Source: Octopus vulgaris (Eukaryota). From it: DNA of 64,000 bases. A program made the translations under genes and the position numbers. The notes below the pieces were generated by a model, which saw only the letters and a list, made by a program, of their open reading frames with translations, ran no database searches and was not told the origin of the DNA. Below, piece by piece: positions 26,529 through 62,207 of the stretch; the first letter of the stretch is position 1; the number at the start of each line of letters is the position of its first letter. The stretch lies in the NCBI GenBank assembly GCA_951406725.2, contig OX597814.1, positions 203,112,001-203,176,000 of the forward strand. Direction: 5' to 3'.

Positions 26529-26863
26529 TGATATATATATATAATACTAGCATATATAATGGTAAGAAATTCTCAAGAGAGCTAAACAAGGTTTTTGAAG
26601 AAGAAACACCACTACCACTGCCCCTCACCCTCAGACAGGTATTTCAGCCCTTAACTTCTTATATTCCTAGGGAGCCAGGCTGAATCCCAGTCATGACTTC
26701 TGGATGCCTTCTACTGACACTTTTTAGCCACTTGGATATTTAAACCACTCAGAGAAAGATAGGTGTATGTAGGTAGATATATGGGCTCACTCATACACAT
26801 GTGCACACACGCACACTCACACACATAGACATAAAATAGTTTTATTTTGGCCAAGTCAGTCTG

Positions 26864-26910
26864 CTGTTACTCTGGAGTTTCACCTGTGTATTCATGAGTT
26901 CATCAGACAA
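26864..26910 (-). ncRNA. Minimal type I hammerhead ribozyme motif
   Basis: Minus strand: TTGT CTGATGA ACTCATG-AATA-CACAGGT GAAA CTC-CA-GAG TA ACAG. Intact core, GUA site, stem II with 5 of 7 pairs. Confidence 0.75.
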
Positions 26911-27036
26911 ATTATGCTCCACAGTAACAAGAGGCTGACTAGACCAAAATAGATATTATGTTCTGCTAGAGTATTGAGTATTTTCTCTTCTGGCAGTTTA
27001 TACTAAATGTGTGTGTGTGTAAATATATATATATAT

Positions 27037-27263
27037 AAATTAATAAAATACATACATACATTATTAGATATGTACATATATACACAAGGGTACTACATGA
27101 GTACCTATATCGCTAATGATAGAAGTGAAAAAATACTTCTGTACCACCGAATGGTCACAGAAGTATTTTTTTCACTTTTATCGTTAGCGATATAGGTACT
27201 CATGTAGTACCCTTGTGTATATATGTACATATCTAATATTGTATGTATATATTTTATTAATTT
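27037..27263. repeat. Near-perfect palindrome (~110-bp arms, 5-nt loop) between (TA)n tracts
   Basis: Arms 27037-27146 and 27152-27263 are reverse complements with a few mismatches. Confidence 0.93.
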
Positions 27264-28699
27264 GCCTGTATGGCTGATAATTCACTTACCACTTGTGATG
27301 GTATTTTAATAATACCATCCCTATATTTATTTATATTCATATATATATATATATATACTTTTATTTTTAAACTAGAATATTATTGGCATTAACTTCAGTG
27401 TTTGGTCAAAACTTCAAAGTTACTATCAATAATGTTCTTATTTAAGAATGATATATTTATACTTTGCAAAAGTATAGAGTAACCCATCAGATTAATGTAA
27501 AATTGTTTTTATTATAACTGAACATAAAAACAATGTATTGATAATGTTGCTCCCCCGATGAAGAGGAGTGGCCTGCAAGAGCCATGTGCTAATGCCACAG
27601 ATAAAGCACTCATACCAGCACCACATTAAAAGCACCCAGTACACTCTGTAAAGTGGTTGGCATTAGGGAGGGCATCCAGCTGTAGAAACAAAGCCAAATC
27701 AAACTGGAACCTGGTGCAGCCCTCTTGCTTACCAGCTCTGGTCAAACCATCCAACCCATACTAGCATGGAAAATTGACATTAAAGGAGGAGGAGGAGGAT
27801 GTATGCATATAGATGCAAGAGTATGATCGTTACCAGCATCGCCTTACTGGCACTTATGCCTGTGCTAGTAGGGTGCCAAGAGCACCATCCGAGCGTGATC
27901 GTTGCCAGAGCAGCCAACTGGGTTCCGTACCCATGGCACGTAAAAGGGCACCATTCGAGCGTGATCGTTACCAACGTCACTTCACTGGCACATGCAAAAA
28001 GATTCGAGTGAGGTCGTTGCCAGTACCGCCTGACTGCCCCCCCCCATGCTGGTGGCACGTAAAAGCACCTACTAGACTCTTGGAGTGGTTGGCGTTAGGA
28101 AGGGCATCCAACTGTAGAAACTCTGCCAGATCAAGATTGGAGCCTGGTGCAGCCACCTGGTTCGCCAGCCCTCAGTCAAAATCGTCCAACCCATGCTATC
28201 ATGGAAAGCAGACGTTAAACGATGATGATGATGTTTTGATCAGTCTGGGACATTGATAAGAAATATTTGTGCCGTGCTTTGCTGTGGGGTTGAACTTGAC
28301 ACTGCTTAGTTATGAAACATGCCTGCACTCTTTGCATTGTCAGGAGATTTCCTTTTAGAATCCCTCTCTTTGTTTAAAACTCTGCAATGTAGCTTGTTAA
28401 TCTACAACAATAATACAGAACTTGAAATGTGAAATTGTATCACTGACCTTTCAAACTTATCAATATTCCACTAAAATTTTACATTGATTCTTAGTTTTTG
28501 TTATTGATTTTCATGATTAAATGGGAGAAAAAAATGTAAAATTGACTTTCTTTATAGCTTATTTCAACTAGAAATTCTTTTTTTTTTTTTCAATTTTATT
28601 TCATTAAAATGTCTTATTAAAAAAAAGAGTAATCTAAAAACAAAAAGTGGAATCTTTTGTTCAGTCTCTTTTATAATGTGCATGCATTATTTGAAAAGT

Positions 28700-28736
<37 letters not shown>

Positions 28737-28746
28737 ATGTAACACT

Positions 28747-28800
<54 letters not shown>

Positions 28801-29325
28801 GTAACATATATATATATATTATTTCATAAGTCTTTTATTCTTTCTTTCTTTTTTTTTTCATCCAAATAATTCACTATGGAAATATTCTTATGGCAACTAT
28901 TAATTAGAGGTTATGCTTTTTTTGTTTGTTGTTTTTTTGGGGGTGGGTTTTTTTTATATTGTAACCAAAAGATAATTCAAAAGACATCTTTAATTTTTTT
29001 TTTTTCCCGTTTACATTTATTATTATATTTCTTACAATGTACCACCAATTCTATCCTGGCTTTTAAGTAATTGAACAGTTTCCAGAATTGTTTTTGTGCC
29101 AGTGGGTCTGGTGGCTGGGTAGGTAGTTCAGTGGTTCCATTGCTTTCCATCTGATGGCTTTCGCCGTCTTACAATAGAGTCATGTATCTCATAGCATTAT
29201 CTTTACTCAATTTATCGTATTTGTAAAATTATAATTTCAAAAATAAATTTACAGGTGTTCAACCTGAAACTTTGAAATGAAATTTGTTTCAGACATTCAA
29301 ATATAATGGTATATCAGGAATTAAT

Positions 29326-29561
29326 AAGGCAGTGAGCTGGCAGAAACGTTAGCACGCCGGGCGAAATGCGTAACCATATTTCGTCTGCCGTTACGTTGTG
29401 AGTTCAAATTCCGCCAAGGTAGACTTTGCCTTTCATCCTTTCAGAGTCGATTAAATAAGTACCAGTTACACACTGGGGGTCGATGTAATCGACTTAATCC
29501 GTGTGTCTGTCCTTGTTTGTCCCCTCTGTGTTTAGCCCCTTGTGGGTAGAAAAAGACATAA
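29326..29561 (+). mobile_element. Family-A SINE, full length, 19-bp TSD
   Basis: GTAT(A/C)TCAGGAATTAATAA at 29309-29327 and 29562-29580. Confidence 0.92.
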
Positions 29562-29971
29562 GTATCTCAGGAATTAATAACAGCTTCAGTCATGTTTCTT
29601 CTTGTTTAACAGCTTCTGTCAAGGGGAGGTAACTGTGATGGTGACCTTCACTGCTTCTTTATGATTGGTCAAATCGATGTGATTGATCTTAAACCTGGCC
29701 AGCTGCCAGACAACATCTTAGCAGAAACATCGCTTGGGATGTTGAGGTGCTAGGGAGTTATGAAGAGCAAAGGCCATGGTAGTAGTGGTAGAAAAAAGCA
29801 GAAGGAAGAGACATGTGTCTGATGGTCAGAGCTTGTAATGTAGTTGTGAGTGAATCCATCAAATGTATGGTTGTGAGTGTAGCATTAATACATGGCTATA
29901 TAACACGCGGACCATTTCTGCTGTTCCTAACACTGTTCTCCCTTTCACAAACAAATGCAACAGCAGCAGCA

Positions 29972-30342
29972 GTGGAGGCGCAATGGCCCAGTGGTTAGGG
30001 CAGCAGACTCGCAGTCGGAGGATGGTGGTTTCGATTCCCAGATCGGGCATTGTGTGTGTTTATTGAGCAAAAACACCTAAAGCTCCACAAGGCTCCAGCA
30101 GGGGATGGTGGCGACCCCTGTTGTACTCTTTCGCTCCAACTTTCTCTCACTCTTTCTTTCTGTTTCTTGTCCCCGACTTCCTACGCAACTGCTGAGCCTG
30201 GATGCGCATTCATCCATCAGTCGATGCTCTCGGTGTTGGGGGTTGACCAGCTTTCTCTTCTGTGGATCTTACGAATAGCAAAGGACCACGTTTCGGACTT
30301 CTCCCACTACAGAAAACCACTTCGCTGAACAAACAGCAGCAG
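29972..30342 (+). mobile_element. tRNA-derived SINE, head C + tail 2
   Basis: Same head as 26148 but an unrelated 3' half; AACAGCAGCAGC direct repeats. Confidence 0.85.
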
Positions 30343-30374
30343 CTATACAACCACAACATCCATTTCGCTTTCTG

Positions 30375-30680
30375 TGTGGCCTTGTGGTTAGGGTGTTGCA
30401 CTCATGATCACTAGTTTGTGGGTTCAATTCCCAGACTGAGTGGCATGTTGTATTCATGAGCAAAGCTCTTCATTTCACATTGCTCCAGTCCACTCAGCTG
30501 TAAGTGGGTACACCCTGCAATGGACTAGCTTTCCAATTGAATGTGGGTGGGGGAGGGGGTAGCCAGTTCACTTATCCAACAGGGTGACATTGTTCAAAAG
30601 CTAAAAAAATTATGCAAAGTAGATTGTGACTAACGATGCACAGCAACATCCAGTAGTCTGGTCAATCGCAGTCAAATGAC
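30375..30680 (+). mobile_element. tRNA-derived SINE, head D + tail 3
   Basis: Head TGGCCTTGTGGTTAGGGTGTTGCAC; tail ATGCAAAG..ATTGTGAC..CAACATC..TAGTCTGG; another copy at 46268-46580. Confidence 0.75.
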
Positions 30681-31181
30681 TTTCTACAGAGAAATACAAA
30701 ATCTCTCTTAATAAAGCCAAAATAATGGAAGATATTAATCATTGTCAAAAACCGTCATATCTGAAAAGCTTGTTTTGTGTGTGTGTGCGTGTGCCCTTGT
30801 CTTGACATCATGTGATAATTGCAAATGAACATTATCATTATGCAAGTGATGTTGTTTGTTTCCATTCTTCCGCAAAAAACATGCTTGACCATGGGGGAAA
30901 ATATTACCTTGCTTGGAAACAGATGCATGTTGGTGACAGGAAAGGCATCCACCCATAGAAAATCTGTCTCTATGAATTCCATCTGATCATGCGATTATGG
31001 GAAGGTGAACTTTAAATGATGATGACAGTGGTGGCGGTGGCAATGGTGGTGATGATGATGATAGTGGACTTTTAGCTAAACAAGGACCATCATCTTTGTG
31101 TTGCTTTGTTTAGCAATCAGCCCATCTCTTTTATATTGTCTTTAACACAGTATAACAGAGATTGCAAGTCAAAGTTTTCCT

Positions 31182-31590
31182 TTGACCTTTTTTGTCACCA
31201 TATTTCTGTACAAATACACTGCTGTTGTTTCAATTGATTTAGAAAATAAAAAGAGAATTTGATAAAACAATGTCATCATTATTAACCCTTTAGCTTTCAG
31301 ATTAGCCTGTCAAACGCAATATTTATTGACATTGTTTTGAATTATTCATGCAATGTTTCACAGCTTTAAGATTTTGATGATGTAATTGTTTAATTTTCAA
31401 CTGATATTGTACAGTAAGGTATGAGAGGCCAGATACGGCCATTTAAAATGCAAATGGATTAATCTTGTGTTTGGAGCATAAATTTACATGAAATTTCGAT
31501 GGTAGGTATTAAATTAGATTACTTTACAACAGCAAGTTCGTATCTGAGAACCATGGATAGTGTCAGATAGGTTAGCATCAAAAGGGTTGA
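31182..31590. mobile_element. Nested piggyBac-like MITEs
   Basis: Inner element TTAA-CCCTTTAGC...GCAAATGGA-TTAA (31282-31462) inside an outer TTGA-CCTTTT...AAAAGGG-TTGA element. Confidence 0.5.
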
Positions 31591-32122
31591 AAAGAATTCA
31601 GAGTTTGAAAAATAAGTTAAGCAGTTCAAAAGACTGGAAATCTAAATATTTTTGTTCTGGTTCCTGATCAAATTCAAGTTTAAACATAAAGTTGTCAACC
31701 TCCAAGTTGCTTAGATATTTCTATGTCAACTTGTAACTTGCTCCAATATTTGTATGCCAACTTATAACCTTGTCCAATAAGTATGCTAGCTTGTAGTAAC
31801 CTATGTCAGCGTGTAACTTCTTCACACACCTGTATGCCATTAAACTGACCAATGTTAAACAATGGCATCACATAAATCTCAATTCCACACTAGTGTTACT
31901 GACAACAGGTTCTACATGAATCAATGATGGAGCCTCTACTCAGGTGATCAACTTGCTAGAAATAACAATCAAATCTCTCTCCAAATAACATTACGAACTA
32001 CATGGTTCCGGGTTCAGTCTCACTGTGTGGCACCTTGGGCAAGTGTCTTCTGCTATAGCCTCGGGCTGACCAAAGCCTTGTGAGTGGATTTGGTAGATGG
32101 AAACTGAAAGAAGCCCGTCGTA

Positions 32123-32195
<73 letters not shown>

Positions 32196-32410
32196 TTCTG
32201 TGTCTGTGTTTGTCCCCCCCAACATTGCTTGACAAACGATGCTGCTGTGTTTACGCCCCCGTAACTTAGCAGTTCGGCAAAAGAGACCGGTAGAATAAGT
32301 ATTAGGCTTACAAAGAATAAGTCCTGGGGTCGATTCGCTCGACTAAAGGCGGTGCTCAAGCATGGCCACAGTCAAATGACTGAAACAAGTAAAAGAGTAA
32401 AACTTATATA

Positions 32411-32793
32411 CTTTATTCATCAAGTTACAACAAAAGCATCCTGTTGCAGAGTCTGAAGCGACTTTTCTGCCAGTTCTTTGATCCCATGTTGATGCCAGTT
32501 CTTAGTCTTTGAGGTTAAGAACTCCTTCACTGAAGCTTCCACCGCCACTTGTTCCAATGCATGGCTCACTTTCTGTACTTCAATGAAGAGGAGGTGGAAG
32601 CTTCAATGAAGGAATTCTTTGTCTCGAAGGACCAGAACTGGCATCAGCATGGGATCAAAGACTGTCAGAAAGGTGACTTCAGACCATGCAACATGATGGC
32701 CTCTACTTTGAGTGTTAGGATGGGTTTGCTGTAACTTGATGAATAAAACAAATGAGTTACTAAACTGTTGCAAAACATTTGACTCAACACAAT
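32411..32793. mobile_element. Fold-back mariner derivative built from two inverted transposase 3' ends
   Basis: Right arm encodes AHFL..EEVEASMKEFFVSKDQNWHQHGIK (mariner C-terminus); 32411-32545 is its diverged reverse complement. Confidence 0.8.
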
Positions 32794-33117
32794 TGTATTG
32801 TGTGAAGGGAAGGATAAAGGATATATTGAGAACATAGCCTGTGGTAAACTGTCAGATAAGATAGAGGGGGTGGGTCAAGGCTAGAATGTCTTTGATCATA
32901 GGATTACTCTAGAGTTAACAACAACATCGGCAATAGGTTGTATTTCGATTAAACAGTTCTCTGATGAATGGTGGGAGTATATGAAATGTTAAGAAGTTTG
33001 CTCCCTAACCATATGGTTTCAGGTTTGGTCCCATTGTACAACACCTTGGCTGTCTTCTGCCATAGCCCCAGGCTAACCAAAGCTTTGTGAGAGGATCTGG
33101 TAGACAGAAACTAAAAG

Positions 33118-33350
33118 AAGGTGGCAAGTTGGCAGAAACATTAGCACGCTGGGCTAAAGGCTTAGCAGTATTTCGTGTGCCATTACATTCTGAGTTCAAA
33201 CTTCACCGAGGTCGAATTTGCCTTTCATCCTTTCGGGGTCGATAAATTAAGTACCAGTTACACACTGGGGTCGATGTAATCGACTTAATCCCTCTGTCTG
33301 GCCTTGTTTGTCCTCTCTATGTTTAGCCCCTTGTGGGCAATAAAGAAATA
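33118..33350 (+). mobile_element. Family-A SINE nested in a CORE-like SINE (32988-33117)
   Basis: 14-bp TSD AGAAACTAAAAGAA. Confidence 0.88.
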
Positions 33351-33439
33351 AGAAACTAAAAGAAACCTCTATGTTGTCATATAAAAGTAGGGACATATTA
33401 GATAATGCAGTCCTATATCCAAATTATATTATTTTTATA

Positions 33440-33830
33440 CTTGCTGAGTGCAAGGAAGGGTCAGAGCCCATGACCCTTTACAGACACTTCAAGACTGGTG
33501 AGATTGATTGGTGCTATTAATGTTGGTTTTAAACTGCTATAAGTCAACAATTACAGAAAAGACATAAGCAAGGTGGAGATTCCAGAAGGATGATGTCCAG
33601 AGGAAGAAAGACTGGGAATTGTAGTTGGTACAGTGAAAGGAGGTGGGTGGATGCAACAAGGGTGGATGAGAGACAGAAGTGAGTGAGTCAGGGATACCTG
33701 AGTGATTGAGGTATAATACCAGCTGTCTCTGAGAACTCAAGGCCTTTATAGGTGATAGAAAAGACAGAGAGAGTAGATAGTAAACCTGTGAGCCAGAGGC
33801 AGGATTTTGTCTGCTGGTGATGGAATGTCA
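33440..33830 (-). mobile_element. Decayed CR1/L2/Jockey-group LINE 3' end
   Basis: Reverse translation SFFLWTSSFWNLHLAYVFSVIVDL*QFKTNIN resembles the FF..T...WN.LP...F...DL..FK C-terminus. Confidence 0.55.
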
Positions 33831-35603: not shown

Positions 35604-36080
35604 CATCATCATCATTGTTCCACCGTGGTCGAGACAATGGAATTTACTATGTTACGCCAGACTTCACGGTCCATCATAGCATTATGGAGGTCCTGTTGCT
35701 GGATACCTGTATCCCTCGAGATTACATCAGGGTAGGAGAGTGTGTGCCCTCTGGTATCGCGAGCAGATGGCTTCCAGAGGAGAAGAGTAGAAATTACCTC
35801 GTTTTCAGGTCTACAACAATGTCCAGCAAACTGGACTCTTCTACCTTTCACAAGAGATGATACAGGTGGTAATTTCCCATATATTTGTACTTTGGGTGGA
35901 TGACGCTTCCACAAGAGATTTTGAGCTCTCATATGGAGGCAAGTGTAAATTCCATCCAACCATCATTCAAGCTTCTTTGATAACATCCAGGTTTCTGAGC
36001 CATATAGTAGAATTGGTTCGACTGTGGCTTTGAAGATTTTAAGTTTGAAATCTCTACTTAGATTTGATGACCAGATCATT
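35604..36080 (-). mobile_element. RTE/RTEX-type LINE 3' fragment (second family)
   Basis: IWSSNLSRDFKLKIFKATVEPILLYGSETW and DGIYT...RRVQFAGHC...DREVWR, frameshifted, ending in (GAT)n. Confidence 0.88.
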
Positions 36081-36913
36081 ACAGGCTGACCAGTAAGCAC
36101 AATCAGCATGCACCCTGCAATGTTACCCAAGAATCTCTGTCTGTTATTACCTTGTCCACTGCTTGTAGACATTCTCCAGCAAACCTGGTGTGTTGTATAA
36201 AAACAATAATAATGATGATGATGATGACGACACTCACTGACAATGATGAAAATAATGCAACTGCTGCTACTGAAGTTGAGGATTATGATGATGATGCTGA
36301 CATTGAAATAAATATATTTAAACTACTGTCATTAACAATGCTCAGAAATCATTGTTGAATCAACTCCACTGAAAACATTACAAAATACATAAATACATTT
36401 ATTCATAAATTGCATTGAAATATTTAAATTGAATCAATTCTTTGCTACACATTCTTAACGACGTCAGGAAAATGACAAATGAAAGAATGTCAACCACCTC
36501 ATTATATAATATGCAAATGAGAGTAATCCTAATTTTCCCTCGTTTGCTTAGACTTGGTTGAATAAAAAGCTATTGGCAGTAATGAAAACTGTTGTCTTAG
36601 AATATTATTGGGATAAACGGAGAAAACAAAGTTGAAAGAACGAAAGGACAGTATATTTGCTCGATCAATTACAATGTTTTTAAGGGCCAAAGAAAGGTGA
36701 AATTTTACAATAGGTTGTGCCAAATGCTCATTCACTTATCCTTCTCCTCATCAAGATCCTCATCATCAATTAACATCTATATTCCTTTCTGGTATGGGTT
36801 GGATGGTTTGACAAGGATCCAATGGGTCCAATGATGGCATCATGCTCTAGTGTCTGCTTTGCTAGGGTTTCTATGGGTGCATGCTCTTCCTAATACCAAC
36901 AACTTTACAATAT

Positions 36914-38805: not shown

Positions 38806-38851
<46 letters not shown>

Positions 38852-39028
38852 GGGCTTAGTAAAATAAATTACTTTGCCACATACTGAACTTAGTAGAAAT
38901 AGCAGCCAAAAAAAATTTTCTTAGCATTTCTACTACTTAAAGAAAATTTCTCTCAGATAATGTTTACTCTAGACAGCTCACGAAGGTTTGGGGGTAAATA
39001 CAGAAAAATATCACAAGTACATAGATCG

Positions 39029-39091
39029 TTTGAGTACGTCAACGTTTCAAGATTAGCCAAATAAAATCAGCATTTCTTTCGTCAGCTCAAA
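39029..39091 (-). ncRNA. Type I hammerhead ribozyme motif (left arm)
   Basis: Exact reverse complement of 39450-39512. Confidence 0.8.
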
Positions 39092-39449
39092 ATTTCTTAA
39101 TTTGGATTTGGAAACACTAAAAAGAAGGAACTTTACCTATCAGCGAACTTGTCGCTTCAGATGAACCACTGAATTCACTTTAAATGGTCCTTTTACATAC
39201 TGAACACTTGGTGAAATTGATTAATTAATTAATTTTACCCTCAATTGTTGATATTATAATTCATTTCTCGCGGTTAAAATATAATGTTTGCTAGATAGAC
39301 CACATGGGTGGAATGGGGAGTGCAGAATTTTACGCCTACGCATTTTGAATTTGTTGACACTGTTAGTTGGAGTGGTTCATCTGAAGCGACAAGTTCGCTG
39401 ATAGGTAAAGTTCCTTCTTTTTAGTGTTTCCAAATCCAAATTAAGAAAT

Positions 39450-39512
39450 TTTGAGCTGACGAAAGAAATGCTGATTTTATTTGGCTAATCTTGAAACGTT
39501 GACGTACTCAAA
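39450..39512 (+). ncRNA. Type I hammerhead ribozyme motif (right arm, sense to the host gene)
   Basis: TTTGAG CTGACGA AAGA...TCTT GAAA CGT-TG-ACG TA CTCAAA: 6-bp stem I, intact core, GUA cleavage triplet. Confidence 0.82.
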
Positions 39513-39717
39513 CGATCTATGTACTTGTGATATTTTTCTGTATTTACCCCCAAACCTTCGTGAGCTGTCTAGAGTAAACATTATCTGAGAGAAATTTTCT
39601 TTAAGTAGTAGAAATGCTAAGAAAATTTTTTTGGCTGCTATTTCTACTAAGTTCAGTATGTGGCAAAGTAATTTATTTTACTAAGCCCTAATTATATAAT
39701 GTAATATTTTGAATTCG

Positions 39718-39752
<35 letters not shown>

Positions 39753-44552: not shown

Positions 44553-44856
44553 TTGGAGTGGTTGGTGTTAGGAAGGGCATCCAGCTGTAGAAACTCTGCC
44601 AGATCAGATTGGAGCCTGGTGCAGCCATCTGGCTCACCAGTCCCCAGTCACACCATCCAACCCATGCCAGCATGGAAAGAAGACATTAAACGATGATGAG
44701 GATATAGTGTAGGTATCAGTTAGAGGTGTTTAATCCCTCTAAGGGATAAGTAAATCCAAAGTCACTCCTGGTTATTACCTGGGTAGATATAGTCTTTTGT
44801 AAAGTTGTACAGTAGCAGATGGTTCAGTTGGTAGACCATAGTTTAGGTTATATAGA

Positions 44857-45284
44857 AGAAGAAAATGAATGTAATAACAAGGGGAAACTCATGGTTTTCG
44901 CTGGTATGCCTTTAATTTAATTAGATAACAAATAAGGAAGAAGCAATGATGAAGGTAGCATTTACGATTGTTTCGATTTACTAGTTTTAGTAAATCTCTT
45001 CAGAATGCAAAAAATAGATTGATACATTGGTTAGGGTGTGAAAATAATTGATACATATGTGATGGTAATAGAAGCAAAGGTAGTAAGTCTTACATTAAAT
45101 TTTGTTCTTGCACTGGTAATTTCACTGGAGATAGGTTTCATTGTAATAGATTAGTTAGTTTCGTTGGGCAATTAGAGCGGGGTGAATATTATTTTGGTGT
45201 GGGGTTCATTCTTCTTTGTTATCTAATTAAAGCATACCAGTGAAAACGACGAGTTTCCCCTTGTGATTACATCCATTTTCTTCT
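44857..45284. mobile_element. Fold-back element with ~70-bp diverged inverted arms and a hammerhead in the spacer
   Basis: 44857-44932 versus 45215-45284 are reverse-complementary; (TA)n on the right flank. Confidence 0.8.
44958..45008 (-). ncRNA. Minimal type I hammerhead ribozyme motif
   Basis: Minus strand: GCATT CTGAAGA GATTTACTA-AAAC-TAGTAAATC GAAA C-AATC-G TA AATGC. Perfect 5-bp stem I, 9-bp stem II, GUA site. Confidence 0.88.
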
Positions 45285-45310
45285 CATATATATATATATA
45301 TACATATATA

Positions 45311-46140: not shown

Positions 46141-46235
46141 ACAAAAAATTTTCCATCAATGAACAGGGCATGATTACAACTGCTTCCACATCAACTGTAT
46201 TCCCTGCAGACAGAATTTACACTCTCAATATTGAG
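46141..46235 (+). CDS. Cadherin-superfamily gene, internal exon C (95 nt, phase 1/0): (D)KKFSINEQGMITTASTSTVFPADRIYTLNIE
   Basis: TTTTTACAG acceptor; GTAGGT donor at 46236; the G from exon B plus AC gives GAC (Asp); F-x-I-N-x-x-G-x-I-x-T and Y-x-L-x-I motifs continue the EC repeat of exon B. Confidence 0.9.
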
Positions 46236-46793
46236 GTAGGTTTTTGCTTCTTTTGAATCAAATTACGTAATATATGTATATATATGTGGAAGGTATGTGG
46301 CACAGTGGTTAAGGTGTTGCTTTCATGATAACTAGATCGTAGGTTCGATTCCCAAACTGGATGCATGTCATGTTCTTGAGTAAAACACTTCATTTCGCAT
46401 TGCTCCAGTCCACTCAGGGTGTAAATGGATCACCCTGTGGTGGATTAGCCTTCCGATCAGGAAGAATGTTGGCCTGCTTACCTCACTTTTGAAGGGTGGC
46501 ATCCTTCAAAAGTCAAAACAATGCAAAGCACATTGTCAACAGCAGTGTATAACAACATGCAATAGTCTGGTTGATATCATAATATATATATATATACATA
46601 TATGTGTGTGTGTGTGTATGTTTGCATCTATATATATAAAATAGTCTGGTTGATATCATGATATATATATATAGCTTCTAAGCTGAAGTGAAGACAGCAT
46701 GTTTTTTGTCTATCTCCTTACCTTCTTGGAGGTTTTAGGTAAAATTATACTAATGTGTCCATCTGTTTTAATTTAATTTAATTCTATGTATTT

Positions 46794-46881
46794 ATGCAGC
46801 TGAGGATTGCTCTGCATTTAAATTGATGTAATGGTTGCATTGTTCAATTAAATGGAGTCGCTTAAAACGCTCATACTGCAT
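46794..46881 (+). ncRNA. Degenerate hammerhead motif (probably inactive)
   Basis: ATGCAG CTGAGGA [long imperfect stem II] AAAA (for GAAA) CGCTCA TA CTGCAT; 6-bp stem I intact; G>A-type decay in the core and stem III; lies between (TA)n tracts. Confidence 0.5.
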
Positions 46882-47071
46882 TACCTCTGGATATCCTGTT
46901 GCTTATTTTGGTGTGTCTGTATATATATATATACATATAGTTAATTCGAGGAAGTCATCTCCTCATTAGGTATTATATAATCCAAGATATTCCACTGGTT
47001 TAATCCCTATCATATAATGCAAAAGACATTTTGGTGTATGTTCAGGATTATTGAAATTATCAATATTGGAG

Positions 47072-47392
47072 GGAAAACAAGAAGAAAATGGAGAAGAAAT
47101 GGACATAGGTAATAATTTATTTGTATGTTACAAAAAGATGACACTTTTTTAAAAAAAACATAACAGTACATATAAATTGACTGACAGGTTGAAAGCTCAA
47201 AAAATAAATTAAGATAAAATATCTATTTTTATTTTTTATTTTTTATTCTAATTTATTTTTTGAGCTTTCAACCTGTCATTCAATTTATATGTACTGTTAT
47301 GTTCTTTAAAAAAAATCCGTCATCTTTTTGTAACATAAATATAAATTATTACTTACATCCATTTCTTCTCTATTTTCTTCTTCTTGTTTTCC
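47072..47392. repeat. Diverged AT-rich palindrome (~140-bp arms)
   Basis: 47072-47211 versus 47249-47392 are reverse-complementary. Confidence 0.88.
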
Positions 47393-47404
47393 ACCCAGTA
47401 TATT

Positions 47405-48060
47405 TGCCAGTGCTGCCTGACTGACTCCTGTGCCAGCGGCATGTAAAAAGCACCATTCAAGCATGGTCAAAGCCAGTGCCACCTAACTAGCGCCTGGGCC
47501 AGCGGCATGTAAAAAGCACCATTCAAGCATGGTCAAAGCCAGTGCCACCTAACTAGCGCCTGTGCCAGCGGCATGTAAAAAGCACCATTCAAGCATGGTC
47601 AAAGCCAGTGCCACCTAACTAGCGCCTGGGCCAGCGGCATGTAAAAAGCACCATTCAAGCATGGTCAAAGCCAGTGCCACCTAACTAGCGCCTGGGCCAT
47701 TGGCATGTAAAAAGCACCATTCAAGCATGGTCAAAGCCAGTGCCACCTAACTAGTGCCTGGGCCAGTGGCATGTAAAAAGCACCATTCAAGCATGGTCGA
47801 AGCCAGTGGCGCCTGACTAGCACCTGTTCCAGTGGCATGTAAAAGGCACCATTCAAGCATGGTCGAAGCCAGTGCCGCCTGACTAGCGCCTGTTCCAGTG
47901 GCATGTAAAAGGCACCATTCAAGCATGGTCGAAGCCAGTGCCGCCTGACTAGCGCCTGGGCTAGTGGCATGTAAAAAGCACCATTCAAGCATGGTCAAAG
48001 ACAGTGCTGCCTGACTAGCACCTGTGCCAGTGGCACATAAAAGGCACCCACTACACTCTC
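47405..48060 (+). repeat. Tandem array of ~10 x 66-bp units derived from the RTE 3' UTR
   Basis: GCATGGTC recurs at 47461, 47527, 47593 ... 47989 (period 66); the array ends in the GCACCCACTACACTCTC RTE tail. Confidence 0.95.
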
Positions 48061-48865: not shown

Positions 48866-49669
48866 AAAACAAAAATTAAAATATAATAATAAATATAACT
48901 TTTATTGATGTCGGTGAGAGAGATAAGAAGTTTCAAGAAGTTATCATATTGTTTATTTTTGAAAGTTTCGTAGCAGAATATGGCAAATTGAGAATTGTAG
49001 ACCTTTGATAAGAAAGCAAACATTGTATACATACATTAATTTAACAGTATTAGACGAGAAGAAGAGCAAGAAGCATATTAAAATCTATGATTCTTGACTA
49101 CAAACATTTACTTTGTAGATTTAAATGACACCCAGTATTGACAATTTTATAACTTTAAAGTTCCCTGACATAATAATTATTGTAAACAAAATATTCATGT
49201 CATTGACATTGTGTAAACATCAAATATAAGTTGAACAAGAAAACTTTTGGAAGAGGCCGTTTAAAAGTTTGTTCTTTACTGTTGTTTGTTTGGTTTTTTT
49301 AGTGTCTTTAAATATTGCTTTTACATATAACCATGTAATTCTAAATGTTTAAGGATGTGTGTTTGTATGTGTGTGCATGTATATGTGTGTCTGTACACAC
49401 ACACTCGCATGTGTGTGTATAATATATATATACATATATACATACATATACATACCTACATACATATATGTATATATATATATAATTTCACATGTATCCA
49501 TGTTATTCAAAAATTTTATTCTCTCACACAGATATATAACATAACATATAACCGTGTAATTCTAAATTTTTACTTCGTGTGTGTGTGTGTGTGAAGGCAC
49601 ATGGTTTTGTGGTTAGGATATTTGGCTCGTGATCATAAGCTCATGAGTTCAAATTCCAGGGTAGACAAT

Positions 49670-50119
49670 GTATGCAATGGAAGGCTATATGTGTTTCAGC
49701 AAGTCTCTGCACTACCACACATGGCTCTAGTAACACAGGAATGGATGGCTGAAAATTTTCATGATCACATAACCCCTAACATGTGGCCTCCTAATTCCCC
49801 ATATCTCAATTCATTGGACTATTACCTGTGGTGCGTTGTTGAGAGATAGAGGTCAATGAACATGCCCATAACACCAAAGATTCTTTGGAAGTTGCCATAG
49901 TCAGAATAATGTCCAAAATTAACCAGGACCACTTGATTCGAGAATGTAGATGATTTAGATCTCATATAGAAGCAGTTATTGAAGTTGAAGGTGGCTTTGT
50001 TGAATAACATTACAGAAAAGGTTTATTTTTATCTTCATAGCACTGTTTGATAAATAAAGATATTATATATCTGGTTTTTTTATAACCATAAATCTGTCCT
50101 CAAATATCTTATGCACCCC

Positions 50120-51022: not shown

Positions 51023-53346
51023 TCTCACATATGCACATACACCATTCAAAGAATTATTGACTTAATCTAAGAAATTTCCTAATCTGCTCATCAATAATTC
51101 ACATCTACAGAAATTAGCAAGAATTGTGGGAACAAAATCTATGATCATACAAAATATAACTCCTGTTTAGTTTTGTTTTTTTTAGGTTGGAGGTGGGTGG
51201 AGCCATTTAGTGAGAATTTATTATTTCACTGTGAAGTTCAACAATAGATTTAAAAATCAGTCCTTTTATCAATTCATATCAATAATTATTTTGAAAGTAA
51301 AGTGAAAAGAAACTAGAATTTTCACAGAAAATTTGATCATGTTTTAAACACATCACAAATATTGCCAAAGTTAACAATCGAAAAAGTTGAAATTCACAAT
51401 CCATCAGTATTTTTGATAAATTATGGAAATAAACTTAGCAGAAAATGTGAAAAGACAATTTCATGTAGGTGTGTGTTCTACATTTATATTTAAAACTAAA
51501 TTCATTGTGAAGGTTTTCTGCTGATATATATATATATAGTTTAGTATATCATAATGAACAATCTTTTAACAAATTCTCAAGTTTAGATATAATCTTATTT
51601 CAAAACATTCATACGTTTGAGATATGGTTTAATTTGGAAAATAAGCAAAGCTCAGCTTGTTTTTTTGTTGGTGGTAGTGTTTATGACTACAATGACTATA
51701 TTATCTGCTTGACAGATAACACAAACTTTATAGAGAGAGATATGGAGATATCAGTGTAACCAAAATTAAATAATTATAACAAGTTCTTTCTCTCTCTTTC
51801 CTCTTCATCATCATCATCATTTTAACATCAGTTTTCCATGCTGGTATGGGTTGGACAGTTTGACAGGAGCTGGCAAGCCAGAGGGCTGCACCAGGCTTCA
51901 GTCACCTGTTTTGGCCTGGTTTCTTCAGCTGGGTGTCCTTCCTAACTCCAACCATTTTTACAGAGTGTACTGAGTGCATTTTTACATGGTGCCAGCATGG
52001 GTGCTTTTTTTATGTGGCACCAGCATGGGGACTTTTTATGTGATGCCAGTCAGAGTCTGCAAATTTTCTGTGTTAATGTAGTTGGGGCAGGCTTGGTAGG
52101 GCTGCCAATGGTCCGACCATGCAACAGGTTGTATTGAGTTACATGTGACCAGTAGCACTAGGAGTGACTTGATTTATGAGGGCTATATACTCAACTAAAA
52201 CCCTTAATGCTGGTGCCCCAGCATGGCAGTGAGCCCAAGACAGAAAGCAATAATACGTAAAGAGAGAAAGAAAAAAGAATTGAAACAGTTTCTCTTTTAT
52301 TCCATGTTTATAAATTGATTTAATATGTTCTTCCATTAAAATACTACATATTTACTGATCTTTATGCTTGACGCCGTTTCAAAAGATTCCTTAATGCTTG
52401 GAACAATGGCCTTTATTTATTTACTGTATTTGGTTGCTTGAAAATAGAAAATGACAATGTATGTCACAATACATATTGAAATTTCAAAAATAACCTCCTT
52501 TTTTCCCCCCCACTGACTTCCATTCTAAACTAAGACATAAATTTTAATGAGAAATGTTGAATCATGGAAGAGTTTTATTTAATATCTAAAAGCATATTCT
52601 TTGTCAAAGGGTTAAGAATAGGGTTTGTTTTGGGGTTTGTGTGTGTGTGTGTGTGTGTGCTAAAATTCTTCAGCGTCCTTTGATTGATAATATATATGTA
52701 TACATCAACTTCTTGGTTCTTTTATGTTGCTTTTCTAATTAAAGATAGCAACCGTGTTTAGAACTCTGCAACCATTCACGTATGTCTGTGTGTCCAACTG
52801 AATCCATTAAGGTCTTTCTGAAGTCAATTGTTTTCTTTCATCCAAATTTAATTATCCTTTTGTTCAAGATCGACATAAATACTAGCGATTATGTCATTAT
52901 ATCGAAATAGCACTTCAAGTTTGCAGTCATATAGGTTTCTCAGCGAACATAAGTTGTTTTTATTTTTATTTCAATTTGTTTTATTTTACTTCTTGTTTCG
53001 CTAACTTTTACAACAAGATTGTTCACAAACAGTTTAAATATATAACACAAAGACACACACATACACACACACACACACACATGCATTCTTAAGATTAATC
53101 TCCAGTGCTATTGTGAATTGATCTCCTACGTTCTTTGGTCAATTGTAATTTATGAAGTACATTTAATTCTATAGTCAGCTGTTAACAGTTTTTTTTTTCT
53201 CTATATTCAAAGATTAACGAATTTATTGGCGAACACAATTCTATATTAAAGTATCTCTGGAGAAAATATAGTTGTAGTTATTTGTTTATTTTACTTTTTC
53301 TTCTCTTTCTCTTATTCACTCTCTCATTTCCATGTGTTTTTTTTAA

Positions 53347-53377
<31 letters not shown>

Positions 53378-56079: not shown

Positions 56080-56385
56080 ATTTCTTTATTACTCACAAGG
56101 GGCTAAACATAGAGGGGACAAATAAGGACAGACAAAGGATCGAGTCAATTACATCAACCCCAGTACACAACTGGTACTTAATTTATTGACCCCAAAAGGA
56201 TGAAAGGTAAAGTTGACCTCGGCGGAATTTGAACTCACAATGTAACGGCAGACGAAATACTGCTAATGTTGCCCTGCTCACTTAGCCAGCAGAGTGGCAT
56301 CATTCAAAAGCTAAAACAATGCAAAGCACATTGTGACCAGCGATGTATAACAACATCCAATAGCCTGGTTGACCATGTGAGATAC
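56080..56385. mobile_element. Family-A SINE (-) abutting a tail-3 SINE fragment (+)
   Basis: Homology to other copies in the window. Confidence 0.75.
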
Positions 56386-57835
56386 ATGTGTGTGTGTATG
56401 TGTGATGGGCTTCTTCCATTTTCTGTCTCCTAAATTTCACTCACAAGGTGTTGGTCAGCCAATAAATATAGAAGACATCAGCTGATGATGTCCACACAGA
56501 AGAAGTGAACTTCTTGACTGCACACCCCAGCCTGCACCTTAATAGAAGCAAAATCCTAGCTATTACTAAAATGTGTTTAATATTGGAGAAGGGTTAAAAA
56601 AACCATACATAGAAAAAACCTGGTTGACAGGCCTTTAATCAGAGTTCTTCCAGATAAAGGTTAGTTGACTTAAGATTAAACGTCAACAAGATGGAAGATC
56701 TAAGTGAGCTTATCTTTCACTTTTAGACTGAAATTATTTTTTAAAAAAAGGAAAAGAAAAATCCTATAGAATTGTTATTTAAATTATTGAGCTAAGAACA
56801 GATTCAGTAAATGATTTTGGTGAATTGTAATCCCAGTTTATCTGATTAGATCTTAAGCAAAATTCCATTTTTAGATTTACTGCTAAATCTAATTCTTTGA
56901 AAAAATCTTGGAGTAGGTTTCTGTCTTTGACAAGATTGCATCAAGACAAATGTTCTTGAATGAATTCTATATTAAGAAATTTGCAAGCTTTGATCTTGCC
57001 CTGATATCATGATAAAAATATACCTAATGTCTCTTACATTTCTTGCAACAAGCTAATGTGGTGTCTCTATGTTGTCTCTTGACTTGCTAGTAATAGCAGC
57101 CAAATCTCCATCAAATCACACTTCACCATCTTAGTAAAGTTGGATAATGTGTATGTGGCTTCACTTCACATGGGAAAAAAGCAGAATGGTCATATCTGAA
57201 ATGTCTTTGAACATAGGTTTGATTTACCTAGGACTAAATAACAGCATCATCATCATCATCATCATTTAGCCTCCATTTTCCATGCTGGCATGGGTTGGAC
57301 AGTTTGACAGAAGCTTGCAAGGCCAGGAACCACACCAAGTGCCACAGTCTGCTTTGGCATGGTTTCTACGGCTGGATGCCTTTCTTAACACCAAACACTT
57401 TACAGACTATACTGGGTGCCTTTTTTACATGACACCAGTGCTTTTTACTTGGCACCAACACCAGACAGTAGCAGCAGTAGTAGTATTCAAACTCCATGAC
57501 ATTTCTGGTCAAACATGACTATGATCAAAGACTGGTGCCAGTTATGTCCATCCAGTTTTTTTAGGGACATCTAGGATGCTAGATTGTGATTTGAAGGCAA
57601 TTTAGCTGATGTTTCTAGCAAGTCAGGCAAACATTTAGAGGCACCCACAATTCACCCTAGCAACACCATATGTTGCTGCCTCTAATTCTGTTTTATTTTG
57701 TGTGCTGTACATGTCTTTCCCTCTTTCATTGCTCTTTTTTTCGTACTTGACTTAATATGTCTGCTTACTGTCTCTTCCTTTAACCTTTTCTGACAAGCCT
57801 TGTAAATAATAAGCTCATTATTATAATTATTTTAT

Positions 57836-58514
57836 AAAGGTGGCAAGCTGGCAGGATTATTAGCATGCCAAACAAAATTCTTAAAGCAATTTGTTCCTAT
57901 TTACATTCTGAGACTTTACCTTTCATCCTTTCGGGGTCGATAAATTAAGTACCAGTGAAACACTGGGGTCGACGTAATCGACTCATCCCCTCCCTCAAAA
58001 GGGCTGCCCTTGTGGCAAAATTTGAAACCATTATTATTATTATTATTATTATTATTTTCATATACACACAACAGATTATACTATTGGGAAAAAAAATCCT
58101 AACATCAATTTACAACAAATAACCTTAGATGCCAAGAACTCTCCTAAGTATCTTAGCTGTCCCAAATAACACCATTTTCTGGAGCTGTACGTAACTGGGT
58201 TTTAAGCCTATTTCCTCTATCCATCTGTTCAGATCTTTAGGGATAGTTCCCTATGCACCTATAACTACTGGGATACAGTTTACCTGCACTTTTCATAGTC
58301 TCTGTAATTCAATAGCTTGGTCTATTATTATTATTATTATTATTATTATTCATCCATCTTTGCATTCTGAGTTCAAATTCCGACTAGGTCAACTTTGCCT
58401 TTCATCCTTTCAGGGTTGATAAAATAATTACATTTTGAACACTGGGGGGTGGGGTCGATGTAATCGACTAACCCGCTCCCCTAAGCTTGCTGGCCTTGTG
58501 CCAAAATTTGAAAC

Positions 58515-58556
<42 letters not shown>

Positions 58557-59729
58557 AAATTTAAATTCTAAATTTTAAATTCCAGGAATGATAAGTTTTG
58601 TTGTTTTAAACTCATGTTTCTCTGGAATAACAGATGGATTCGACAGTTGGTTGTTGCGGTAAATTAGTATTTATCTATTCAGTCCATCCACAAAATTGTC
58701 TGCTAAAATATACTGAAACATTTCTGACCTTTCATATTATCATTTATCGAAGAGGCCCCTTGCTATCTGAGATGTTGGGTGTTCTTGACAAATGACAAAG
58801 GTCACATGATTAAATTATAAAGCATGTTCTTGTAAATGTCTTTTGGGTTTTTTTCCTCCAGTCATAAATGTTTTCCCTCTTGGTTCAATGGTTTATTTAT
58901 CCTGATGTTCACAAATAATCTAACACGATTTCTATAGCTTAAAAATTAAGATTTCATCCAACCCATGCCAGCATGGAGAACAGACATTAAATGGTGATAA
59001 GGGTTTTTCTAATATTGGTTATAAATTTTGGCACAAGGCCAGCAACTTTGGAGGAGGGGTTAAGTCAATTACATCAACAGCAGTGCTCAGCTGGTACTTA
59101 TTTTGTCAACACCAAAATGATGAAAGGCAAAGTCAACCTCGGCAGAATTTGAACTCAAAACAAAGATGGACGAAATGCTTCTCAGCATTTTGCATGGAAT
59201 GCTAATTAATGATTCTGTCAATTTAGCGTCTTAATAATAATAATAATAATAATAATTTCTCTGACATTGACACAAGGCCACACTCATTGTTACTTAATGT
59301 AGCAGACAAGCACTGGGGTAGCTTTATTATAATAATCCTTTCTACTAAAGGCACAAGGTCTGAAATTTGGGGCAGAGGGGCTAGTCGATTACGTCGTCCC
59401 CAGTGTTCCACTGGTACTTAATTTATCGACCGTAAAAGAATGAAAGGCAAAGTCAACCTCAGTGGAATTTGAACTCAGAACGTAACAACAATACTTTATT
59501 TCTTTACTACCCACAAGGGGCTAAACACAGAGGGGGCAAACAAGGACAGATAAACGGATTAAGTCGATTATATCAACCCCAGTGTGTAACGGGTACTTAA
59601 TTTATCGACCGTGAAAGGATGAAAGGCAAAGTTGACTTCGGCGGAATTTGAACTCAGAACGTAGCGGCAGACGAAATACGGCTAAGCATTTCGCCTGGTG
59701 TGCTAACAATTCTGCCAGTTTGCCACCTT
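57836..59729. mobile_element. Cluster of at least 5 family-A SINEs in both orientations, some with (ATT)n tails
   Basis: Copies at ~57836-58055(+), 58350-58555(+), 59020-59230(-), 59330-59490(-) and 59495-59729(-). Confidence 0.8.
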
Positions 59730-60776
59730 TGCTGCTTTCTTATAATAATAACCTCTGTAGAAGAAAAGCAAGTTGATCTTGTTCAAATTAGAACTCAGGA
59801 AGATGCAAGAATGGCTGTGTGGTTAATAAGGTTGCTTTGCAACCATTTGGTTTTGGATTCAATCCCACTGCATAGCATCTTGGGAAAATGTCTTCTATTA
59901 TATTGCCAGTCCAACCAATGTCTGAATGTTTTGTTTTGTTTTTTTCTCTTATATGTGTCTACAGGTCTACAGGCACTAGAGATATCAAATTTTAAAATGT
60001 GGCCAAAGTTGTTGGAATGGTGGGATGGATTTGTTTGTTGGTTTGTTTCCACCAAATCAGCTACTAAGCACCAAAACTTTGGTGTGTTGATTCCTAGAGA
60101 AGCAAGACTTTCAAAATATGGTGACTGATACTAGGTATTTGTCTAATTGCATGTGTCTGGACAGCTTCCAATCAATTCACATTCTGGATAAATCTCATGT
60201 CACAAACATATTTTACTGATGCTCTAATTATTCTCCTAATCCACCATACTATTGATTTTTTTTTTTATATTGACAAAAATTAAGAAATCTGCTGGACAGA
60301 GTGTATTTGGTTGAATCAACCCCAGCATCTAACCATTACTTAATACAAAACAAAAGCCAAATTGGTGCTTGTTGAACATTTTGGTCCAATACTCCTCCAT
60401 GTCCAATTCAGTTAATTGTTTTTCATTATGTTCTGTACAAGAGAATATTTACATCTTGTCCGAAAGTGTCTGATGAACAATCAAGATATATATTGATGAA
60501 TTAAAGAAGTTTGTGGTATGGTGGAGAAAACTCCCATTCATCAGATCCCCAGTTTGCAGATAGGGGAATGGCCTGTAGATATATAGGTTAGCTGTGAATT
60601 CACAATAAGCAGTCCTGGACAAAATCAAGGGTTACCCTTTGGCAAGGCATAGCATCCGTTACCCACCTTGGTCACAGTGAAATCCTGGGGCACTGAAATG
60701 AGTGGAAATGCTTCTATCATTAGAAAGAAGGATGGTAGTAGATAATGGAACGCAAAACATAAAATAAAATATTTTG

Positions 60777-61156
60777 TGTAGTAAAGATTGTTTGCCAACA
60801 TAACATGGTAGTAATGGTTTAGGATGAATGTTGCTGTAATTTAGCCCCTGGAGACATTGTCTCCAGCTGGCTGTACGACACAATCTGTGTCCTTATATTT
60901 TTGAACAAGGGAATCTAGCACCCCACTCAGCTCAAAACAATATCTGTGTATCATGATTTCTGGGTTATTTCCCTTCATCAGCACAGAATAATTGTTTTGA
61001 GCTGAGTGGGGGTGCTAGATTCCCTTGTTCAAAAATATAAGGACACAGATTGTGTCGTACAGCCAGCTGGAGAAGATGTCTCCTGGGGCTAAATTACAGC
61101 AACATTCATCCTAAACCATTACTACCATGTTATGTTGGCAAACAATCTTTACTACA
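60777..61156. mobile_element. Fold-back element: ~165-bp near-identical inverted arms with a hammerhead as the loop
   Basis: Arms 60777-60941 and 60991-61156. Confidence 0.9.
60944..60986 (-). ncRNA. Minimal type I hammerhead ribozyme motif with palindromic stem III
   Basis: Minus strand: CTGTG CTGATGA A-GGG-AAATAA-CCC-A GAAA TCATGA TA CACAG. Stem III ATCATGAT is self-complementary; AUA site. Confidence 0.8.
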
Positions 61157-61892
61157 AAGTACTGTTGCCGAATATCTCTCTTTGTGAGATTTAAAAATAG
61201 TAATTTTCTAAAATATTTTGTCTTTGGATCTCTTCCCACTTTGCAAATCAAATTACACTTTTATGAATCTTGGTCTGGGAAACCCATCAGATTGACTGGC
61301 ACTGCAATCAACTATAGCATCTGTAACAAGAAATTAGCAACCGAAAGACATTTTTCCAAGCAAACTCGACGAGATGATGTTGATGAAAGAAGTTTCATGG
61401 TTAATTTCTTTCTGACTGGTCCAGCAACCATGCAGTGGCTCAATTCAGTCTAATGTTCATAATCTTAGCTTATGACATTTATCTTTTACCTTCTCCTTGT
61501 TTTCAGTAATTAGACTGTTGCCATACTAGGGCAGTGCCTTGAAGAATTTTTAGATGACCAAATCAACCCAAGTACTCATTTTTTTTAAACCTGGCACTTA
61601 TTCTATTGGTCTCTTTTGCTGAACTGTTAAGTTATAGGGATGTAAATACACCAACACCAACTGGCAGGTGGTGGGTAAGGGACAAATACAGACACAAAAA
61701 CACACACACACAGCACATGTATATATATATATATATATATATAACTGTAAGATCCAAGGATCAAGGTACAGGAAGAAAGTGAGCTTTAAGCAATCTGTAG
61801 AAAATATTTTAAAAAACCCACCTTTCAGGAACTATAATGGTTTATGGTTTATTGGTGCAGAAGGTTGTGAATTTTTCCTGTATCGAAGTATG

Positions 61893-61945
<53 letters not shown>

Positions 61946-62005
61946 ACCATGATAGATCATTAGCCACTACACACATTTTTTTCTCTCCTTGTTTTTTCTG
62001 TGTCC

Positions 62006-62041
62006 CTTTCTGTAGAAGAGCGTAGGCTCGAAACGTAAAAG
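62006..62041 (+). ncRNA. Variant minimal hammerhead motif in a ~190-bp element (61942-62133) between (TA)n tracts
   Basis: CTTT CTGTAGA A GAGC-GTAG-GCTC GAAA CG TA AAAG; loopless ACGT stem III; core has T in place of the conserved A6. Confidence 0.6.
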
Positions 62042-62132
62042 ACTTTTTCTATTCCTGAGCGTTATACTAATACATCTGTTTGTTTTGTACACCACCTGTC
62101 TTCGTCTTTTGTTTTTTTCGTAAACTCTCCCA

Positions 62133-62207
<75 letters not shown>

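Follow-up and report, generated by a model that had tools for sequence, protein, structure and literature searches.

Introduction

Penelope-like elements (PLEs) are marked by a high rate of 5' truncation, by an adjacent inverted and 5'-truncated second copy, by a tail of 30–40 bp at either end and by a bias towards microsatellites (PMC8557442). This source also describes an octopus Hydra element with a (TA)n preference, a Repbase Hydra element (Penelope-13_HM) with hammerheads on both strands owing to an inverted copy, and non-autonomous PLE derivatives in Chlamys, and it names the source of PLE inverted repeats as unresolved. Here, we describe six hammerhead-bearing loci in a stretch of 64,000 nucleotides of Octopus vulgaris (GenBank assembly GCA_951406725.2, contig OX597814.1, forward-strand positions 203,112,001 to 203,176,000; hereafter the window), which lie in introns of a cadherin gene and are very probably 5'-truncated insertions of several unrelated Penelope-like families, reduced to their ribozyme-bearing 3' ends, four of them with an inverted second copy likely made at integration.

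Head-to-head inverted pseudo-long terminal repeats (pLTRs) with palindromic junctions have been reported, and self-priming has been proposed (PMC3846280); according to PMC11167929, a PLE protein cuts AT-rich DNA and extends both strands, two RNA start sites define the tail, and ribozyme cleavage is dispensable in vitro. Hammerhead pairs on opposite strands, 100–700 bp apart, together with a majority of single motifs, have been attributed to truncated PLEs, with 2,000–9,000 hammerheads per genome (PMC4209133). As regards molluscs, Penelope is described as recently active in octopus, with 30 families and 329 insertions (PMC13282606), the giant squid has 235 Rfam Hammerhead_1 loci (PMC6962438), and retrozymes of the non-LTR kind (lacking long terminal repeats) are carried by molluscs (PMC7229834); retrozyme monomers are said to be common, and retrozymes to be non-autonomous PLE derivatives, in a recent preprint (bioRxiv 10.64898/2026.07.22.740005). 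Octopus PLEs are already known from PMC13282606 and PMC8557442, and the present families and their density may be unreported: literature searches on hammerheads in octopus and in cephalopods listed no survey of those of octopus, and the Zenodo octopus repeat library or the supplement of PMC13282606 may already name the families.

An original prediction, made from the letters of the window, had described seven hammerhead motifs at six loci (here A to F, in the order of their coordinates) and had offered two options, Penelope end remnants or a distinct class of non-coding fold-back elements.

Hammerhead Motifs in the Window

The descriptor used in this work asks for intact CUGANGA and GAAA boxes, a stem I of at least 4 pairs, a stem II of at least 3 pairs and a short stem III, with one extra base permitted at the foot of stem II. 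It finds five matches in the 64 kb, with cores at 26906(–), 39085(–), 39456(+), 45003(–) and 60981(–). Across 100 locally shuffled windows it averages 0.02 matches and never exceeds 1, none of them (0/100) reaching five; an earlier and stricter descriptor gave four matches against 0–1 in eight shuffles. The comparison with shuffled sequence, which the original prediction had named, together with stem covariation among genomic copies, as able to refute the ribozyme call, is in its favour, and all of its seven motifs were located. Five of them, at four loci (A, B twice, C and E), are intact-core type I hammerheads with both core boxes, stems I–III and an NUH site; the remaining two are a decayed motif (D) and a core variant (F), and both fail the generic descriptor. 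In D (46800+) the GAAA box is broken, but the first box, a stem I of 6 perfect pairs and an extended stem II are retained, and F (62010+) reads CUGUAGA, with a U at position 6 (A6) of the core. Descriptors fitted to D and F afterwards, and therefore optimistic, match in 10/200 and 1/200 shuffles, respectively, and a generic descriptor allowing one change gives two non-canonical matches against a null mean of 0.67. F is a probable hammerhead and D a plausible one.

Could the motifs be chance products of AT-rich, hairpin-rich intron sequence? For A, B, C and E this is refuted, by the five matches against 0.02 expected and by locus A, which matches the stem III/stem I motif of the published Hydra-2_Amil and Hydra-2_Ajap elements with one extra base (one match in the window, 0 in 100 shuffles), and we regard chance as an extremely improbable explanation overall. 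It would be favoured by the lack of an Rfam match, by the passage of D and F through fitted descriptors only, and by fold predictions in which the hammerhead is never the minimum-energy fold among the five motifs evaluated, lying 1–9 kcal/mol above it in A, B, C, E and F (constrained folds without some of the upper stem II pairs). The predicted self-duplexes of stem III amount to –7.8 kcal/mol in A, –11.4 in B and –7.8 in E, with a weak one in F (–2.3) and none in C, a pattern in line with the dimer-dependent minimal hammerheads described in PMC4209133.

The intact-core density of four loci in 64 kb, with none in the first 26 kb, is that of one window selected for this very feature. Pattern scans of viral contigs and of metagenomes gave no related hammerhead loci; a lone metagenome match (L001), lying in DNA of 50% GC without BLAST similarity to the window, was discarded as a chance match.

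Architecture of the Six Loci

Inverted repeats hold four of the six loci, A, B, C and E, at which the arms could be aligned, in agreement with the original prediction that four loci lie in or at the apex of inverted repeats: 26843–26951 (70% identity over the BLAST span), 38814–39748 (arms 100% identical over 262 nt), 44849–45292 (83%) and 60777–61156 (98% over 148 nt). Every fold-back duplicates the part that lies 3' of the ribozyme, or includes it, and places this part inverted on the ribozyme's 5' side, with the 3' ends facing outward (4/4); an inverted, 5'-truncated copy is hence adjacent and head-to-head at 4/6 loci. The cores lie 60–270 nt from the 3' ends, that is, the ribozyme sits in the 3' end, as it does in PLEs. 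The junction geometry differs at all four fold-backs.

At locus A, the type I hammerhead (26864–26910, minus strand), detected by the descriptor, has an intact core, a stem I of 4 bp and the Hydra-clade-like stem III/stem I motif found in File S2 of PMC8557442. The inverted copy of the 3' end, delimited by alignment (26917–27005, plus strand), starts at stem III, while the direct copy starts 10 nt above the core; the inverted arm carries an extension of ~40–45 nt unique to it, followed by (TG)n(TA)n. At locus B, on descriptor and alignment, the whole ribozyme is present in both arms and the junction lies 85 nt upstream of the core: the inverted arm (38848–39170, minus strand), which starts at (TA)17, holds a hammerhead at 39029–39091, and the direct arm (39371–39720, plus strand) holds one at 39450–39512 and ends in a one-sided tail of 22 nt followed by (TA)14. 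Between them lies a spacer of 200 nt (39171–39370, plus strand) without a recognisable open reading frame (ORF). At locus C, described with the same two tools, the hammerhead (44958–45008; stem II of 9 bp, stem III of 1 bp) and its downstream arm occupy 44849–45008 on the minus strand, and a spacer of 196 nt upstream of the ribozyme (45009–45204, minus strand) separates them from an inverted copy of the 3' end without ribozyme (45205–45292, plus strand), which starts ~30 nt below the ribozyme and ends in (TA)n.

At locus E, both pieces end at stem I. The 3' end of a very high-copy family (60777–60991, minus strand), recognised by the descriptor and by contigs, contains a hammerhead at 60943–60987 with a 6-bp stem I and a palindromic stem III, and the inverted copy (60992–61185, plus strand; alignment and contigs) begins just 3' of stem I and bears a tail of ~27 nt that is missing on the other arm and common in family contigs. 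Loci D and F, delimited by BLAST and the fitted descriptors, are short pieces between (TA)n runs: D (46794–46881, plus strand) is a decayed hammerhead-like motif in a piece of ~245 nt without an inverted arm, and F (61943–62133, plus strand) is a minimal hammerhead variant (62006–62041; A6 = U) in a piece of 190 nt. Just upstream of locus D, a direct repeat of 34 nt (97%; 46561–46594 and 46640–46673) ends in (TA)n.

The one-sided extensions are thus ~40–45 nt on the inverted arm in A, 22 nt on the direct arm in B and ~27 nt on the inverted arm in E, and, with the exception of E, all loci (A, B, C, D and F; 5/6) have element ends next to (TA)n or (TG)n. The microsatellite adjacency that had been predicted stands for the element ends and not for the distance of the cores from (TA)n, which is unremarkable: nearness of the cores is weak as a statistic because 33% of the window is no further than 300 nt from such a tract, and as a statistical argument it was dropped. 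When the six loci were searched by BLAST against the window, no similarity between loci was seen beyond microsatellites and flanking common repeats, which upholds both the predicted lack of shared primary sequence outside the core and the presence of several independent families.

That the loci are monomers of non-LTR retrozymes, i.e., of tandem hammerhead repeats forming circular RNA, is very unlikely. Type I hammerheads in AT-rich units of 190–350 nt would suit them, such elements occur in molluscs (PMC7229834) and monomers are reported as common (bioRxiv 10.64898/2026.07.22.740005); however, the tandem-repeat scan of the window shows no head-to-tail repeat over any locus, and inverted arms with tails are features of PLE insertions. 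A direct tandem arrangement of pLTRs is likewise absent from the window, and none is expected in stubs.

Family E Beyond the Window

Family E is the sole family examined beyond the window, by aligning contigs of four public runs (4/24) to positions 60500–61050 at 80% identity. The three genomic runs (X1, X2 and X12) yield 3844–5472 family E contigs each. On the unique flank the summed depth is 45–51; it rises abruptly at 60777, peaks near the 3' end at 0.78 million in X1, 1.18 million in X2 and 0.88 million in X12, and over the core amounts to 0.13, 0.31 and 0.20 million, respectively. The ratio of these depths, which is rough and, as the tool warns, no copy number, is of the order of 10,000–20,000 at the 3' end and drops to a few thousand over the ribozyme. 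The depth forms a 3'-anchored gradient, as frequent 5' truncation would give, to which the divergence of the window copy may contribute. The fourth run, X8, which only by a guess is RNA, holds 439 family E contigs and speaks neither for nor against expression.

Contigs of the family run on upstream of the ribozyme, with a median loose length of 38–104 nt, and the best-supported loose ends above it share one non-inverted sequence (34+32, 53+44 and 46+58 contigs in the three genomic runs); because of this common sequence, the fold-back is not the normal 5' side of family E. At least 14 distinct inversion-type junctions leave the arm between 60807 and 60958, eight of them among 15 of the 94 rows of one listing, each in one contig per run, and six more among 12 of the 42 rows of a second. 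Since junctions vary over 150 nt and the upstream sequence is commonly non-inverted, the fold-back of family E is not an element with fixed boundaries. The original prediction had held that variable inversion breakpoints, together with the mapping of every copy to a full-length Penelope terminus, would reduce the loci to ordinary Penelope debris; the first half of this is what family E displays in place of the fixed boundaries that had been looked for.

These data bear directly on the view that the loci belong to a distinct class of fold-backs with fixed boundaries, similar to miniature inverted-repeat transposable elements (MITEs) or to hairpin RNA replicons, with a hammerhead at or near the apex. 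The direct passage of E stem I into a 190-bp hairpin and the perfect arms of B agree with such a class, and one other contig (record 16 of X12) spans the same E apex region, with 21 gaps; against it stand the four geometries at four loci, the asymmetric tails, the variable junctions and frequent non-inverted upstream sequence of family E, where fixed terminal inverted repeats were not borne out, the lack of a visible target-site duplication at E, the armless state of D and F, and the arms of A and B, which are predicted to sequester the ribozyme. We consider this class very improbable, and for E it is largely refuted. Of the two options originally offered, the four geometries and the variable E junctions speak against the second, and the first, Penelope end remnants, is the one supported; opposite-strand pairs and single motifs had already been ascribed to truncated PLEs (PMC4209133).

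Further details concern the origin of the two E arms. The consensus of the loose ends at 60777–60780 is similar to the tail which, in the window copy, is present on the other arm only, and, by eye, the native upstream bases lengthen stem I by five more pairs past an internal loop, with the window junction right there. The arms (60777–60924 and 61009–61156) are 98% identical, with ~4 mutual differences, and at least seven non-majority bases, three of CpG type, are common to both, for which reason both would derive from one source sequence (subfamily) or have been homogenised arm-to-arm. An ORF starting from an AUG within the E core, to be compared with an anole Poseidon element, was considered and rejected: it has 45 codons in the window copy, and the family majority letters (12 listed changes applied) bring stops. 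Beside E, positions 60526–60667 form a separate low-copy repeat with a depth of ~20–40 times that of the unique flank. The native sequence just upstream of the ribozyme (loose ends at 60992–61020) contains a G/C-rich motif of 13–15 nt, which thousands of copies would carry and which may resemble the CTCF binding consensus.

Searches for Coding Remnants and Full-Length Relatives, and Opposing Evidence

Several results weigh against a Penelope-like origin. No reverse transcriptase (RT) or GIY-YIG domain was found near the loci by Pfam in 18 sense-frame translations and in 150 of 538 stop-to-stop frames, which together returned the cadherin exon and two weak unrelated matches only; this agrees with the earlier statement that no convincing RT or GIY-YIG ORF accompanies the motifs. 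A protein search with the C spacer gave no endonuclease candidate. The 3' end of the published Hydra-1_Obim showed no match to the window by eye, three short probes found none in the supplement of PMC8557442 (wrapped lines may hide some), and no link of any locus to a full-length element was found. A Hydra-like 12-mer downstream of the motif recurs in the A extension and is not significant alone (23/100 shuffles). Rfam reports no hammerhead in the window at gathering score or at E ≤ 10. The tails of B and E (22–27 nt) are shorter than the 30–40 bp quoted for PLEs. As for family E, the junction listing covers contigs whose junction differs from that of the window; the loose ends cover part of the rows (924 further); about half of the listed junctions re-enter at 60991–60996, near which resolution is poor owing to clipping; and the X12 contig crossing the apex has been mentioned. 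Some preference of junctions for the stem I region may therefore exist. None of the listed differences (40/169) falls within the core boxes, and the stem III difference between window and family is put down to CpG decay.

Stubs of this length would be too short to be expected to reach the RT/GIY-YIG ORF. Read by eye, two frames of the C spacer, both interrupted by stops, may represent the broken terminus of a GIY-YIG domain, with 'ETY' as in Neptune-1_Ac; the database search gave no match.

This evidence also bears on a further explanation, by which some families (E, F and perhaps B) would be non-autonomous derivatives of PLEs that lack an ORF and are amplified in trans in the form of short RNAs; integration would still have produced the fold-backs as by-products. 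B has no coding remnant in the 285 nt upstream of the core despite its 100% identical arms, E is present in very high copy, F and D are short pieces with (TA)n on both sides, and non-autonomous PLE derivatives are published (Chlamys in PMC8557442; retrozymes in bioRxiv 10.64898/2026.07.22.740005). However, short stubs need not reach an ORF, as in published Hydra elements the stop codon and the ribozyme are separated by ~150–250 nt of non-coding DNA (supplement of PMC8557442, by eye), and the contigs of E extend past the ribozyme on its upstream side, their depth declining gradually as in 5' truncation. We consider this explanation possible and on balance unlikely; it is compatible, and partly overlaps, with truncated PLE stubs.

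Host Gene and Other Repeats

The 60-residue exon at 25917–26096 matches, in a sequence search, protein P0065, the protocadherin Fat 4-like of Octopus vulgaris, which has 10 cadherin stretches and whose cluster includes members from O. sinensis, O. bimaculoides and Argonauta. Three consecutive host exons with AG/GT borders lie on the plus strand by tblastn (~1612–1710, 25917–26097 and 46141–46236), the second covering residues ~299–359 and the third residues ~360–391 of P0065, which confirms the cadherin introns of the original prediction. The cadherin exon appears in the Pfam scan of frames with an E-value of 0.004, below the cut-off, and as a protein query against the word-indexed database it returned nothing. 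Loci A, B and C lie in one intron of the Fat4-like gene; since residues of P0065 beyond 391 (of 2017) had no tblastn match within the window and the following exon was not located there, D, E and F most likely lie in the following intron.

Of the motifs, B(+), D and F alone have the sense orientation in the host pre-mRNA. Efficient cleavage of the host transcript is not expected from any motif because B(+) is predicted to pair over its full length with its inverted arm, trapped in a duplex of 320 bp within the pre-mRNA, D is decayed and F is core-changed; three cases prove no selection. The near-perfect intronic hairpins at 38848–39720 (320 bp) and 60777–61185 (190 bp) would give long double-stranded RNA (dsRNA) in pre-mRNA and are candidate substrates of adenosine-to-inosine editing. 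Octopus is known for heavy RNA editing.

Other local inverted repeats lie at 27037–27263 (93%), 27348–27461 (70%), 32437–32698 (75%), 47063–47401 (84%) and 57080–57625 (78%). A relaxed hammerhead core was absent from five other local hairpins that were scanned, 47063–47401 being covered by alignment alone. The repeat at 27037–27263 starts at (TA)n, has a one-sided extension and may be a PLE end whose two complementary DNAs (cDNAs) stopped short of the ribozyme. Broken frames resembling the reverse transcriptase of long interspersed elements and mariner transposase were recognised by eye at 2300–2750(+), 12443–12742(–), 35612–36046(–) and 49595–49849(+), with no Pfam match at E ≤ 0.01; the RT-like frame at 35612–36046(–) matches P0142 by tblastn (E 3e-9). 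A 66-bp tandem array occupies 47406–48048 (9.7 copies, 93%), with related shorter arrays at 18286–18441 and 51974–52049.

Proposed Mechanism and Significance

We favour truncated PLE insertions because the motifs, the outward-facing head-to-head arms, the one-sided tails, the (TA)n ends and the pattern of family E match published PLE insertions. As PLE biology suggests, a GIY-YIG/RT protein encoded elsewhere would nick AT-rich DNA and prime cDNA near the RNA 3' end, where two start sites would make the tail optional, and cDNA synthesis would usually stop early, leaving a 5'-truncated copy. The inverted arm might arise through priming on both nicked strands and joining of two short cDNAs, or through snap-back self-priming, and the point at which each cDNA ended would set whether the ribozyme comes to lie within an arm, between the two arms or at their tip. 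Two-strand priming is the best fit to the tails, which are one-sided and lie on the direct arm in B and on the inverted arm in A and E, and snap-back agrees with the position of the E junction at helix I; either route may have operated. Cleavage by the hammerheads would take place mainly in dimers, via palindromic stem III, and would be weak or lacking in single intronic copies.

A broader picture, speculative and rather improbable as a whole, would give octopus genomes hammerhead motifs numbering of the order of 100,000, in many PLE-related families, some of them ORF-less and mobilised in trans, with helix I as a site of RT stop or snap-back, clustered junctions, and long intronic dsRNA silencing the ribozyme and feeding RNA editing. 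If the local density were true genome-wide, which one selected window cannot show, octopus would rank with the genomes richest in hammerheads, and a direct test of dual priming versus snap-back would become possible from thousands of inversion junctions within a single family. For annotation, short octopus hairpins that escape Rfam, and that pipelines would label MITEs, short interspersed elements or unknown repeats, probably represent PLE ends.

Comparison with Known Systems

Non-LTR retrozymes (PMC7229834; bioRxiv 10.64898/2026.07.22.740005) share with the present loci a non-coding nature, a type I hammerhead and a length of a few hundred bases; unlike them, these loci have inverted arms and no tandem head-to-tail units. 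Like the present loci, the minimal metazoan PLE hammerheads of PMC4209133 have a short or palindromic helix III and one additional base between positions 9 and 10.1; most of their motifs are single, some form opposite-strand pairs, and each genome has many unrelated families. The differences are the changed A6 of locus F and a local density that, if general, exceeds 2,000–9,000 per genome.

Among Hydra-clade PLEs (Hydra-2_Amil, Hydra-2_Ajap, Penelope-13_HM and Hydra-1_Obim; Files S1, S2 and S7 of PMC8557442), counterparts are found for the stem III/stem I motif at A, an assignment to the clade with a basis of ~18 nt only, for the unpaired bases at the foot of stem II in E and for the (TA)n preference, and Penelope-13_HM shows the two-strand hammerhead arrangement of B; by eye, none of the six loci resembles the end of the octopus element Hydra-1_Obim. 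Compared with truncated endonuclease-bearing PLEs in general (Penelope/Poseidon, Neptune, Nematis and Hydra; PMC8557442, PMC3846280 and PMC11167929), the window lacks an ORF, its families are unmatched to a published consensus and the B and E tails fall below 30–40 bp, whereas the type I hammerhead near the 3' end, the head-to-head inverted truncated copy, the one-sided tail, the (TA)n or AT-rich targets and the 3'-anchored copy gradient are features that the octopus loci and these elements have in common.

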